Shown piece after piece: positions 6,368 through 33,654 of a stretch of DNA of 33,654 nucleotides (position 1 is the first letter of the stretch; every line of letters starts with the position of its first letter). The notes beneath the pieces were generated by a model that did no database searches, was not told the DNA's origin, and worked only from the letters and a program-made list of their open reading frames with translations. The position numbers and the translations under genes are program-made. Source of the stretch: Bdellovibrionales bacterium (GTDB lineage Bacteria; Bdellovibrionota; Bdellovibrionia; Bdellovibrionales; UBA1609); assembly GCA_020435025.1 (NCBI GenBank), contig JAGRAG010000091.1, positions 1-33,654 on the forward strand, given 5' to 3'.

Positions 6368-8214
6368 AAAACACCAAGCTGTTCTTCCATGAGTAACCAT
6401 TCGGGTTCGTTATTCGGGAATAGAACCTTTTCCATCGTCTTTCGATGGAACCACTGTTCCTGCAGCATCGCTTTAACTCCTTGGCTCCACGGATGATCTT
6501 TTGAGTTTGTTTTGGCAAGCTCATTAAAGGTCCATTTGTCCCAGGGTAGAGGCAGAACCTCTGAGGCCTTTTGAAATAAAAAGTATCCAAATACAAATGG
6601 CTGTCGTCGATAGTTCCAAATGGGTTCTAGATAAAGAGGCATCAAATGAGGAGACTCGATCACTAAAACCTTTGATTTCCATTTTAGTATTTCCGACATC
6701 ATTTGGTTATAGCCTCTCAAGGTCATTTCCGCTGAGAGCTGGCCTGAAAAAAATTGACGAGCTTGTTGCTGAAAATTCTTCCAACTGGGAATTTTTTGAC
6801 GAAAATCTATCTGATAAACTCGTTGAAGAGAATCTAAGTACCATGGCATTTGTATCAAGGAGGCATGAATCACGGGAACGTCGAGGGGAAATTTTTGATT
6901 TAACTGGGCTTCAAGTAAAGCGAAATAGAAAAAATCAATACTCGTTATAATTAGAGTTTGCTCGTCAACAATAGCCTCAATGTTTTTTGTCCATTCCGGA
7001 AGAACAGCAGGATAGGGTCCTTTTCTTATTTGATTTCCCATTCCCACAATCACAAGTGAACTCACCAATAGGACGAGCCCTTTTCTTAAAGATTTTTGAG
7101 AAACTTTGCTATAAAAAATGGCCAACCCTAAGGTCGAAGAAATAGATAAGAGCATCCACCAAGGTAAGTAGAAGGGCCACATCATACGATCAAATCCGGC
7201 GTTGATAGATGGACTCCCCGTAAAAGGATTGTAAAAACGAATGAACTGCGAAACCAATTCTCCAGAAGCGACTAAAAAAGTCAGCAAAATCCAAGGCCAC
7301 AAGAATTTCCGTTGATTCCAAACAAAATACAGAAAAAAAGGTAGGCACAGAACATACCAATAGGGGTCTATTAAAAAAGAGTATTGATGTTGCCAATGGT
7401 AGGCGAAAAGGCTGAGGTCATTTGGTAAAGACAGGCCTTGGTATTGCTTTCGAAACACCAGGTCCAATAAAAGAGAAAAACTTTCCGGATCTCCCCAATC
7501 TAAAATAGGCTGTTGAAATGAACGGATCACCAATAATAGAAATGGGGTCAAACCTAGAATAAAGAAAAACAAAGTTTTAGCCAAGCTAGTGAGAGATCTT
7601 GTCGGACTCACCCCGAAAAAAATCCAGCAAGCAGTTCCTGCAACAATCGCTAAATATTGATAGTGTGCTGAAATCAGAATTCCTGAAAGAAATGCTATCA
7701 GATATAAATTTTTATGACTGCAAGTGGTCTGACAGAGACACCTAAAAAGCACAAAAAGATAGAGCATCAAAAAAAGAGTGCTCACACTATATTTTTCTAG
7801 ATGTGAAAATTGAGCAATAGCCAAAGGATGAAGTGCAAAAAGTAGTAAACCACAACAGATCAACAAATAAGATAAAAAAGACAACACGTGAGTTTTTTTA
7901 GCAATTTCGGTGACTATTAAATATCCAAAAGTAAATGAAAAAGCACCGCAAAGAGAAGCCATCAAGGGTCCCAGGATCTCAGTGGGTAAAGGGAGCCACT
8001 GAAAGAGGAGAGAAAACAGGACAAACAAAGGGTAACCAGGAGGGTTTAAGAGGCTTCCCGTTTGAAAGGCGACATTGGCCAAAGCATTTGTTCCCGGAAT
8101 CGAGTAGGGAGTCGCTTGCCACCAAAACCAAAGAAAGCTCGTCAACCAGATGAATGCAGCAAAAAATAAACGCATACACATATAGTACCTGAATGATGCA
8201 AAGAGGGTACTCAT
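6364..8214 (-). CDS. Large polytopic membrane protein, GT-C-fold glycosyltransferase-like (resembles the DUF2723/TMEM260-like family)
   Basis: 616 aa with many predicted TM helices in the first ~400 aa, followed by a soluble C-terminal domain. The early loop motif ...GSLLNPPGYPLF... resembles the HPPGYPL-type loop I recall in DUF2723/PMT-like GT-C enzymes. The family assignment is from memory only. Confidence 0.5.
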   Translation of the reverse strand: MSTLFASFRYYMCMRLFFAAFIWLTSFLWFWWQATPYSIPGTNALANVAFQTGSLLNPPGYPLFVLFSLLFQWLPLPTEILGPLMASLCGAFSFTFGYLIVTEIAKKTHVLSFLSYLLICCGLLLFALHPLAIAQFSHLEKYSVSTLFLMLYLFVLFRCLCQTTCSHKNLYLIAFLSGILISAHYQYLAIVAGTACWIFFGVSPTRSLTSLAKTLFFFILGLTPFLLLVIRSFQQPILDWGDPESFSLLLDLVFRKQYQGLSLPNDLSLFAYHWQHQYSFLIDPYWYVLCLPFFLYFVWNQRKFLWPWILLTFLVASGELVSQFIRFYNPFTGSPSINAGFDRMMWPFYLPWWMLLSISSTLGLAIFYSKVSQKSLRKGLVLLVSSLVIVGMGNQIRKGPYPAVLPEWTKNIEAIVDEQTLIITSIDFFYFALLEAQLNQKFPLDVPVIHASLIQMPWYLDSLQRVYQIDFRQKIPSWKNFQQQARQFFSGQLSAEMTLRGYNQMMSEILKWKSKVLVIESPHLMPLYLEPIWNYRRQPFVFGYFLFQKASEVLPLPWDKWTFNELAKTNSKDHPWSQGVKAMLQEQWFHRKTMEKVLFPNNEPEWLLMEEQLGVF

Positions 8215-32067: not shown

Positions 32068-33435
32068 TTAGCTCGCTTGTTTTTGATCTACTTGGCCTAC
32101 AAGCGGAAATTTGAGAGTGATTCTCGAGTCATTGTGAGCCCGATCAATATATATATTGCCACCATGCTCCGCCATGATTCCCGCGGCAATAGAAAGTCCT
32201 AAGCCGGTTCCTTTGCCAACTGGTTTGGTGGTAAAAAACGGATTAAATACTTTTTCCTCGATTTCAATTGGGATTCCTAAGCCACTGTCAATAACACTGA
32301 TACAAATAAAGCCAGACTCATCTTTGTCTACCTCGATCGCAATAAATTTTTCTGGACAAGATTCAATGGCGTCAAGTGCATTGGAGACCAAATTAACAAT
32401 AATTTGATAAACCTGAACGTACCTACCCCAAAAAGGAGTCTGATCAAATTCACTGATGATCTCAAAACGAATTTGATTGAAGTTAAATTTTTCTTTAAAA
32501 ATTTCTGTGACATCTTCGAAGATTTTTTCTAGTCGAACCACTTCCATGGGATCACTCTCTCCATCTCTACTGTAGTTTTTTAGTCCGCTGATGATCTTGG
32601 TAATTCTTAGAGCTGTGCGATCAATTTTATCGCACATTTCGCCAATCATTACCTTATCGTGACACGACTGGGCTAGTTCTCTCTTAATTCGCTGATTGGC
32701 TCCCAATATTATGGCAAGGGGATTGTTGATTTCATGTGCGATCCCCCCGGCCAATTCTCCTAACTCCGTCATTCGTGAAGTTTTATAAAGAGTTTCTTGT
32801 TGTCGCAAAATTATATCTCTTGAATTGGCCAGCTCCTTTTCAGAATGTTTGATCGTGTAAAGAAAGTAGGTAACTAAAATAGTTGCAAAAAAAGCCGCAT
32901 ACTGTTGGTCCACAATAAGAAGTTTTAACCAGGACTGTTCATCCCATGTTGGAAGAATCTGAATTCCTCTTTCTAGGAAATTTAGTGAAAGATACAAATT
33001 TCCTAAAGACAAATAGGCTGCAACGACTAGACCCCACTTAATTTCACAAAGAAATAGCGACAGCATAATGTATACGGGGATCCATGAAACCAAACCAGAA
33101 AATGCCACGCCATGGGCTCTGATTCCTAAAAGAAGGGCCGTTGACAGTACAAACGAAGAGGGAACTGTAATGGTCATCAATGACCAATTTAGAAACTTCA
33201 TTGTTGTGACACAAAAAACACAAACGCCTAGAATAAGGTAGACAGAAAGTTTAAATTCTTCAGGCAAGACATCATTTACAAATAAGACAGAAGAAGTTAA
33301 GAAAAATCCGAAGATAGCCATTCCTATAATGACTCGCGCCCTTTGTCGATCGCTGTATCGTGAATGTGCACGTAGCTCATCTGGCAAAAACCAGTCTAAA
33401 ATAGCAATAAGCTGATTCAGTACTTCTTGTGGCAT
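32068..33435 (-). CDS. Sensor histidine kinase with a polytopic (about 6-7 TM) N-terminal sensor region; no cognate response regulator in the window
   Basis: H-box LGELAGGIAHEINNPL, N-box VNLVSNALDA, and G-boxes DSGLGI and GKGTGLGLSI. The N-terminal ~190 aa are strongly hydrophobic. Confidence 0.85.
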   Translation of the reverse strand: MPQEVLNQLIAILDWFLPDELRAHSRYSDRQRARVIIGMAIFGFFLTSSVLFVNDVLPEEFKLSVYLILGVCVFCVTTMKFLNWSLMTITVPSSFVLSTALLLGIRAHGVAFSGLVSWIPVYIMLSLFLCEIKWGLVVAAYLSLGNLYLSLNFLERGIQILPTWDEQSWLKLLIVDQQYAAFFATILVTYFLYTIKHSEKELANSRDIILRQQETLYKTSRMTELGELAGGIAHEINNPLAIILGANQRIKRELAQSCHDKVMIGEMCDKIDRTALRITKIISGLKNYSRDGESDPMEVVRLEKIFEDVTEIFKEKFNFNQIRFEIISEFDQTPFWGRYVQVYQIIVNLVSNALDAIESCPEKFIAIEVDKDESGFICISVIDSGLGIPIEIEEKVFNPFFTTKPVGKGTGLGLSIAAGIMAEHGGNIYIDRAHNDSRITLKFPLVGQVDQKQAS

Positions 33436-33494
33436 TCTATCAATTTATCAATACTTTTATTCTAGATCTAATTAAAATACTTTAAGATTTTCGC

Positions 33495-33654
33495 TTCAAG
33501 CTGAGACGTTATTTATAAAACTCCTTCCCTTGCCTACTTCATGCTCAAACAGTCCTCGCCAAGCGGGGCGGCCATAAATGTCCGCACCGCAGCTGCGGAA
33601 CTGCGCGTGAAGTAGGCAAGGGAAGGAGTTTTATAAATAACGTCTCAGCTTGAA
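33495..33654. repeat. 47-bp perfect inverted repeat flanking a 66-nt GC-rich core (MITE-like / long hairpin element), ending at the window end
   Basis: The left arm 33495-33541 (ttcaagctgagacgttatttataaaactccttcccttgcctacttca) is the exact reverse complement of the right arm 33608-33654. The core 33542-33607 has 43/66 G+C by my count and contains the 12-nt palindrome ccgcagctgcgg (33587-33598). Confidence 0.9.

Follow-up and report, generated by a model that had tools for sequence, protein, structure and literature searches.

Background

The repeats with which the present element is best compared are the bacterial MITEs and the REP sequences. Bacterial MITEs, among them Correia/NEMIS, ERIC/IRU, RUP and BOX, are non-coding, intergenic sequences of 150–330 bp that form a single long hairpin, and the present repeat is alike in each of these respects; MITEs differ by presence or absence between related species (PMC10969869, PMC3184786), as the present repeat may also do. 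However, the terminal inverted repeats of MITEs are their most conserved part and are accompanied by target duplications (PMC10969869, PMC3184786), whereas the ends of the present repeat are its least conserved part and have no duplications. Unlike the MITEs, it has no known parent insertion sequence.

The REP, BIME and REPIN sequences of E. coli and Pseudomonas are also extragenic hairpin repeats, with tens to hundreds of copies and an enrichment at gene ends (PMC2817692, PMC3116915). They resemble the present repeat further in lacking target duplications, in their mosaic and nested arrangements and in causing assembly breaks (PMC2817692, PMC3116915), and the repeat described here was indeed found to be extragenic, multi-copy and enriched at gene 3' ends. 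The difference lies in what is conserved: in REP and REPIN sequences it is the stem and a GTAG/CGTC head while the loop varies (PMC2817692, PMC3116915), but here it is an apical module while the stem varies. The conserved part is a tip of 66–76 nt, with no GTAG or CGTC head at the arm ends; the arms are 45–135 nt long, compared with 20–40 nt in REP/REPIN; and, although each REP is confined to its species, the boxes of the present tip are shared without change by different phyla. The usual layout is therefore reversed, with a conserved apical module on a long stem that is free to change, and the element is a new variant among dispersed palindromic repeats, its tip being conserved across phyla.

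Three other systems share some of these features. The mobile GC clusters of yeast mitochondria are GC-rich, structured, non-coding modules of several families, situated in AT-rich intergenic DNA, but they are organellar, short and palindromic themselves, with neither long, locus-specific perfect stems nor any shared box sequence (PMC4478555). The ssi/primosome sites, ssoA origins and Frpo promoters of phages and plasmids are also long imperfect hairpins, conserved in structure and at a few bases of loops or bulges but free in stem sequence; such single-stranded DNA signals occur once or twice per replicon and on one strand, whereas the present repeat has tens of chromosomal copies and its box 5 (defined below) was not found in viral contigs. 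Small self-cleaving ribozymes are known in permuted topologies (hammerhead types I–III, twister P1/P3/P5). They resemble the present repeat in that two strands form a conserved core, the closing helices vary with covariation, one hairpin is dispensable, a variant with circular permutation exists and the spread across phyla is patchy; they differ in that the repeat matches no Rfam ribozyme, has closing stems far longer and more perfect than a ribozyme needs, and is not fixed in orientation in the genome studied. Word and sequence searches found no description of the repeat in the literature covered.

The element in the window

The window, that is, the whole stretch of DNA analysed, comprises 33,654 nt and is contig C84 of a 3.9-Mb, 84.5%-complete Bdellovibrionota MAG in 511 contigs (G000). 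An earlier note on this DNA had reported a 160-bp element at its end. The inverted repeat itself was confirmed, since the arms at 33495-33541 and 33608-33654 (47 nt each) were exact reverse complements around a 66-nt core, as was the claim that this GC-rich core has a 12-nt palindrome of its own, ccgcagctgcgg, at 33587-33598. The reported extent was too short. An inverted-repeat search showed arm pairing to reach inward to 53 nt at 96%, and comparison with a second contig of the assembly (C366) and an independent contig (L028) gave a full element of 180 bp, having 57-nt arms (56/57 paired) and the 66-nt core. Each arm is laid out as AGATTTTCGY plus 47 nt, so that the suspected continuation beyond the end of the sequence amounts to 10 nt; the right arm goes on as ACGAAAATCT on both C366 and L028. 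The features are as follows, where F1 denotes the core family described below.

32068-33435, minus strand: HisKA/HATPase_c sensor kinase gene, 455 aa (Pfam families as listed for L028)
33485-33541, no strand: left arm, 57 nt, of which 33495-33541 is the perfect 47-nt part
33485-33494, no strand: left-arm extension AGATTTTCGC, from comparison with C366 and L028
33540-33559, plus strand: box 5, CATGCTCAAACAGTCCTCGC; 94% mean pairwise identity among F1 copies, with columns invariant in the cross-phylum alignment
33564-33589, plus strand: inner hairpin, CGGGGCGGCC-ATAAATG-TCCGCACCG; inter-box identity among F1 copies is 83%
33592-33609, plus strand: box 3, GCTGCGGAACTGCGCGTG; 92% identity among F1 copies
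33608-33654, no strand: right arm, 47 nt inside the window, exact reverse complement of 33495-33541

Folded as single-stranded DNA, the element had an energy of -69 to -72 kcal/mol; its dinucleotide shuffles gave -21 +/- 3, which corresponds to z = -14 to -16. It is contained in a 384-nt spacer between two divergent genes: the sensor kinase, with its start codon 50 nt from the left arm, and, on C366, a gene for a Lactamase_B-fold (metallo-beta-lactamase-fold) protein that is transcribed away from the element. This copy therefore sits between two gene starts. A scan of the spacer for consensus promoters and terminators was uninformative, returning only a small sub-hairpin inside one arm. A Rho-independent terminator, which has a GC-rich stem of about 5–15 bp and then a T-tract, was rejected, given the 57-bp AT-rich stem, the absence of a trailing T-run and the position between two gene starts; the earlier note had discounted a terminator on the same grounds of stem length and missing T-tract.

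Contig breaks

C84 stops exactly at the last base of a perfect repeat, as do many other contigs, and an assembly artefact had to be considered, namely a chimeric fold-back that would have given the contig end a second arm which the genome itself lacks. This is now barely conceivable. The last 80 nt of C84 were the 100% reverse complement of the end of C366, which carries the second arm and 33 nt of the core and then runs on into different unique DNA with another gene. Likewise L028, an ENA-derived MEGAHIT contig (k141) located via the neighbouring 455-aa protein, crosses all 180 bp without a break and has both genes. Because the second arm is followed in both contigs by unique sequence of a different kind, the fold-back chimera that the earlier note had raised was excluded; moreover, G000 has over 80 hairpins built alike that lie inside contigs and are completely assembled.

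A Logan contig also breaks at the element. Within G000, the outer end of an arm was the exact end of about 23 contigs, and a further dozen stopped inside a core, which bears out the suggestion that the element is why the sequence ends here, and shows the hairpin repeats to be a main cause of fragmentation. The hairpins thus account for much of the fragmentation of this 511-contig MAG, and short-read assemblies of its relatives will break alike. The overlaps between contig ends were heterogeneous (21–28, 80 and 150 nt) and therefore allowed no inference about inversion of the tip.

In G000, 34 contig-end pairs overlapped by exactly 150 nt of unique sequence (e.g., C178/C337 and C296/C426). These breaks were not caused by repeats, and the assembly could be joined further.

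Hairpin families in the genome

Approximately 35–40 F1 loci were found in G000, many of them ending contigs, which supplied the copy number of a dispersed repeat that the earlier note had proposed to count. Their central ~76 nt were 74–99% identical, and nearly every copy had a long inverted repeat of its own (29–88 nt) on its two sides. When the whole genome was scanned for inverted repeats with arms of 28 nt or more and a spacing below 600 nt, 102 hairpins were found, of which more than 80 followed one design: a GC-rich core of 54–104 nt between near-perfect arms of up to 135 nt. The cores belong to at least five families, F1 to F5, that is, at least four sisters of F1. Long hairpins without a tip were few (~15). 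Family F2 shared only the terminal motifs GCTCARACA...GAACTCG with the tip consensus of other Bdellovibrionota genomes given below. In the F1 copies of class A, the outer 43 nt were a separate palindromic family that was also found without a tip.

Three composites resembled Russian dolls, a complete element of one family occupying the exact tip of another family's arms (C158:2055-2370, C6:7608-7935 and C78:21905-22230); in the first, the outer module of one family surrounds a complete F2 element. These composites suggest insertion into hairpin tips.

An F1 30-mer had no match in the metagenome collection, and F1 was absent from the 40 nearest genomes except for a variant in G009.

Structure of the conserved tip

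The conserved part of F1 consists of box 5, CATGCTCARACAGTCCTCGC, and box 3, on either side of a variable hairpin. The first bases of box 5, CATGC, pair with GCGTG of box 3, including a conserved T.G pair, which was present in 24/26 tips. Box 3 and the end of the inner hairpin together form the 12-nt palindrome, and the T, G, GAACT and G columns of box 3 were invariant across phyla. The inner hairpin showed a compensatory change from G-C to A-T at one pair in 7/26 F1 copies, and one U-A. In other taxa it was variable or absent: it was replaced by unrelated perfect hairpins in Coriobacteriia, while the minimal tips of 41 nt (L079, L081 and L090) had no hairpin between the boxes. A covariance model was built from 26 tips of five phyla with 20 pairs; 93% of its cells were paired, against 83% in shuffles, and covariation was confined to the outer helix. 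The two boxes make an asymmetric internal loop that encloses a variable hairpin in most copies.

Two conserved strands forming an asymmetric internal loop, with covarying flanking helices, an optional middle hairpin and a T.G pair kept in nearly all tips, are what would be expected if the tip were a structured RNA module at transcript ends, the long stems being its closing helix P1. It could then serve as an internal loop for protein docking, as a signal for processing or stability, or as a small self-cleaving ribozyme of a new kind, dispersed because it is useful or because it rides on transcripts. This reading is possible, although the balance is clearly on the doubtful side. It was opposed by Rfam 15, in which the tips of F1–F5 and the Bdellovibrio-type tips matched no family, including all of its ribozyme classes (hammerhead, twister, twister-sister, pistol, hatchet, HDV and hairpin); the only matches were to generic long-hairpin models of miRNA precursors, far below gathering scores. 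The covariance search that the earlier note had recommended was therefore negative. Further evidence on this reading comes from the taxonomic distribution, the arms and the gene context, below.

Several likenesses were pursued and set aside. The stretch GACAGUCCU of the tip presumably also occurs in the sTRSV substrate of the hairpin ribozyme, but this likeness was rejected, since loop B is absent, the opposite strand misfits and no model matched. Integron attC sites are defined by R''/R' boxes, RYYYAAC...GTTRRRY, at the base of a hairpin adjoining a cassette ORF; these were rejected by eye because GTTATTT/AAATAAC misfits RRR/YYY and the copies are dispersed singly, not in cassette arrays. Likenesses to an ECF -35 element, a K-turn and boxA were weighed by eye and dropped as unsupported.

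Distribution across taxa

An exact scan with the 21-nt box 5, using one genome per species, identified 67 loci in other species, mostly in Coriobacteriia (Adlercreutzia, Enterorhabdus, Slackia, Ellagibacter and further MAGs). Complete elements with both boxes and paired arms were found in Omnitrophota (L049) and Gemmatimonadota (L058); both boxes were also present in an actinomycetote (L039), where the flanks were visibly paired, and in a second omnitrophote (L063), whose arms were ill-defined. Among Eubacteriales, the match was to box 5 alone, and the one exact match in Phycisphaerales may be due to chance; that in Methanoperedens lies inside a gene and was rejected as fortuitous. The arms at these loci outside Bdellovibrionota were GC-rich and approximately 24 nt long. 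A BLAST search with one Adlercreutzia locus returned at least 11–43 copies per genome in six genomes of Adlercreutzia and Enterorhabdus. Within Bdellovibrionota, the covariance model matched 33/301 genomes and 17/170 genera, many of the matches being in complete genomes of one genus; the inspected hits had the tip consensus AAATGC-TCAGACAG-TCCTCGC...GCTGCGG-AACTC-GCATTT.

A circularly permuted tip, in the order arm-box3-loop-box5-arm, was present in a Gallionellaceae genome (L042), where it accounts for the box 5 match of the exact scan, and in a metagenome contig (L110). Circular permutation is typical of RNA motifs, and this topology is a point in favour of the RNA module. In both sources (L042, reverse complement, 7560-7625, and L110), the permuted tip reads arm-GGCTGCGGAACTCGCAC-loop-CATGCTCARACAGTCCTCGCC-arm', and the arms are homologous.

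The identity of the boxes in predatory Bdellovibrionota and gut Actinomycetota implies a strongly constrained partner, whether an enzyme, a host factor or RNA catalysis. The tip CAUGCUCARACAGUCCUCGC / GCUGCGGAACUGCGCGUG might, as a more speculative and rather unlikely proposal, be an undescribed structured nucleic-acid module, with an optional hairpin between its boxes and a permuted variant, that rides on long self-correcting hairpins and has spread among Bdellovibrionota, Coriobacteriia, Omnitrophota, Gemmatimonadota and Betaproteobacteria. Such a module might act as a small ribozyme of a new class, or a host factor of wide conservation might dock on it.

Two further observations concern Slackia. 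In Slackia sp. ZJ119 (L091), one tip-bearing element was apparently inserted within box 5 of another copy. The Slackia hairpin was also part of a larger mosaic repeat that reached at least 60–90 nt beyond the left arm and ~45 nt beyond the right arm and included further hairpins.

Evolution of the arms

Between F1 copies, the cores were 86–89% identical, and the inner 40 nt of the arms were 38% identical, which is about random; within a copy, the complementarity of the two arms was 97.7%. The variable arm parts matched only themselves in G000. Spacer-like arms were rejected, since the excess of 13-mer matches reflected family members, contig-end duplicates and low-complexity sequence. In F2 and F3, arm identity between copies was 53% and 67% respectively and the arms were homologous along their whole length, so that arms have been inherited in these families. 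Similarly, six Slackia copies had identical arms within the larger mosaic repeat, and there the arms must travel with the tip.

These comparisons allowed the suggestion of a MITE or other non-autonomous mobile element to be assessed. The element is a dispersed, multi-copy repeat, as that suggestion requires; its arms, however, are not conserved (38%), and target-site duplications, which the earlier note had proposed to look for, did not exceed the control. A direct repeat of at least 4 nt was found in 1/21 copies, where shuffled partners gave a mean of 0.73. In place of the conserved terminal inverted repeats of MITEs, the F1 arms kept only a weak outer consensus, TCAAAnTGA..CGTTATTT.

Of 1315 arm pairs in F1, 33 were mismatched: 14 were C.A/A.C, 10 were G.T/T.G and nine were of transversion type. 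There was no strand asymmetry or preference for G.U among them. At orthologous loci of Adlercreutzia, where the flanks were 86–97% identical and the boxes invariant, the arms differed at up to ~9/24 positions, and nearly every difference was mirrored in the partner arm; the inner hairpin differed too. That the stems change between orthologous loci and the boxes do not favours an RNA module; the mismatches speak against it, as they show no G.U preference and include two A.C mismatches fixed on the sense strand of Adlercreutzia arms. Perfect long RNA duplexes are RNase III substrates, and the perfect duplexes of 45–135 bp would be among them, a further point against the RNA module.

The hairpin was absent in A. 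wanghongyangiae between the same flanking genes, although it was present in at least five relatives. A short, left-arm-like GCATGCC remained at this site, resembling an arm or tip junction. Either gain or loss of the entire unit would fit this site, the spacer being highly diverged.

The locus-specific arms would be accounted for if only the tip were mobile, either entering the apex of pre-existing hairpins (terminators or palindromic repeats) or inverting a copy of its flank on insertion. The near-random identity of the arms beside an 83% identical inter-box hairpin favours this, as do the nested composites, in which the arms of one family enclose a whole element of another (C158, C6:7608 and C78), the occurrence without a tip of the 43-nt palindromic family of class A arms, and the arm-like remnant in A. 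wanghongyangiae. It is nonetheless improbable: arms are homologous over their whole length in F3 and F2 and identical among the Slackia copies, those of F1 retain their weak outer consensus, tipped hairpins far outnumber the ~15 without a tip (>80), and the orthologous arms of Adlercreutzia are clearly homologous and diverge in place.

Polymorphism was observed at one orthologous locus in human-gut strains of Adlercreutzia (L102-L137). Three recurrent polymorphic sites and two singletons occurred in the right arm, while there was no polymorphism in the left arm or in the boxes, making the pattern asymmetric.

Origin and maintenance of the repeat

The reading preferred here, for which the chances appear evenly balanced, is that the element belongs to a non-coding DNA hairpin repeat with dispersed copies, similar to REP and MITE sequences, with a functional two-box module at its apex and arms that are copied from each other. 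The unit would spread or persist as DNA able to fold back on itself, and the tip would be the site read by a putative trans-acting factor. The arms would stay complementary through the copying of one from the other during replication, by intrastrand template switching of the Ripley/Lovett type at quasi-palindromes, rather than through selection on an RNA helix. Quasi-palindrome template switching is established in E. coli. Arm-to-arm copying is suggested by the absence of a bias to G.T over A.C mismatches in near-perfect Watson-Crick arms of up to 135 nt, and by the mirrored arm differences at orthologous loci. Any local effect in the divergent promoter region of the window would be exerted through DNA or leader-RNA structure.

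Drift and arm-to-arm copying alone do not explain why the arms are random although the inter-box hairpin, despite its free variation between taxa, has 83% identity among copies; a possible alternative is that each move brings new arms. In addition, no recent transposition was visible in G000, because no two copies share arms.

The repeat is a clean case of a design opposite to that of REP and MITE sequences: a tip constrained in sequence, and a stem free in sequence but perfectly paired. The arms are a natural system for studying how bacterial chromosomes keep long palindromes perfect. The shared boxes also link the hairpin repeats of Bdellovibrionota with those of gut Coriobacteriia, and cultured carriers, among them Adlercreutzia and relatives with complete genomes, are where the putative partner of the tip can be looked for.

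Gene context

The hairpins of G000 were intergenic. Approximately 10/102 overlapped an ORF of at least 90 aa by 30 nt or more, but the majority of these ORFs looked spurious. There were 27 hairpins between convergent genes, where they were enriched, 13 between divergent and 31 between tandem genes, and many abutted stop codons. Among F1 copies, six were in sense and two antisense, six abutted gene ends on both sides and 10 abutted none; for F2, seven were in sense and four antisense. Orientation relative to genes was not significantly fixed in G000 for either family. This, together with the position of the C84 copy between two gene starts, counts against the RNA module.

Other genomes gave a different picture. 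In Coriobacteriia, the upstream gene was in sense for 27/33 scorable copies, although many of these loci are orthologous and hence not independent; where the distance was measured, sense copies mostly lay 8–25 nt past the stop codon and several 100–370 nt. In other Bdellovibrionota, 4/9 inspected matches were directly 3' of tRNA genes, again in sense. Sense copies after stop codons or tRNA genes in these two groups fit an RNA role and go against the DNA reading.

At four loci of other Bdellovibrionota genomes (L153, L155, L156 and L157), the hairpins began ~10–15 nt past the CCA end of the tRNA, and Rfam confirmed the tRNAs of L153 and L157. At four others, in G000 (C108:1868-2099, C220:13524-13765, C132:1892-2139 and C259:5579-5783), the outer arm ends overlapped the stop codons of both convergent genes, so that the end of one gene mirrors that of the other. 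The repeat seems to have overwritten or supplied the gene ends there.

Mobilising enzymes

The preferred reading of a dispersed DNA repeat is weakened in that no mobilising enzyme was found, and Y1/RAYT genes were not commoner in genomes with the tip. PF01797 was present in ~17/33 tip-positive genomes, compared with 171/301 overall, and A. caecimuris B7 had the element but no PF01797 match. The sole Y1-like gene of G000 (C101:4196-4876; 26.5 bits, a weak match) was followed by a different palindrome. A RAYT partner was therefore rejected, there being no association in G000, A. caecimuris B7 or the 301 Bdellovibrionota genomes.

This RAYT-like gene (L097:1357-2037) encodes 226 aa with the HUH motif NHYHL and the sequence YKYVYQNP. 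The palindrome that follows it, GTCCCGGAAATTTAACCGGGAAC at C101 4890-4950, resembles both a tip-less palindromic family, GGTKCCMG...TTTCSGGGACGC (C146, C317, C330 and C395), and the 43-nt outer module of class A arms in F1. The gene and GTCCCGGAAATTTAACCGGGAAC may be a genuine REP-RAYT pair of G000.
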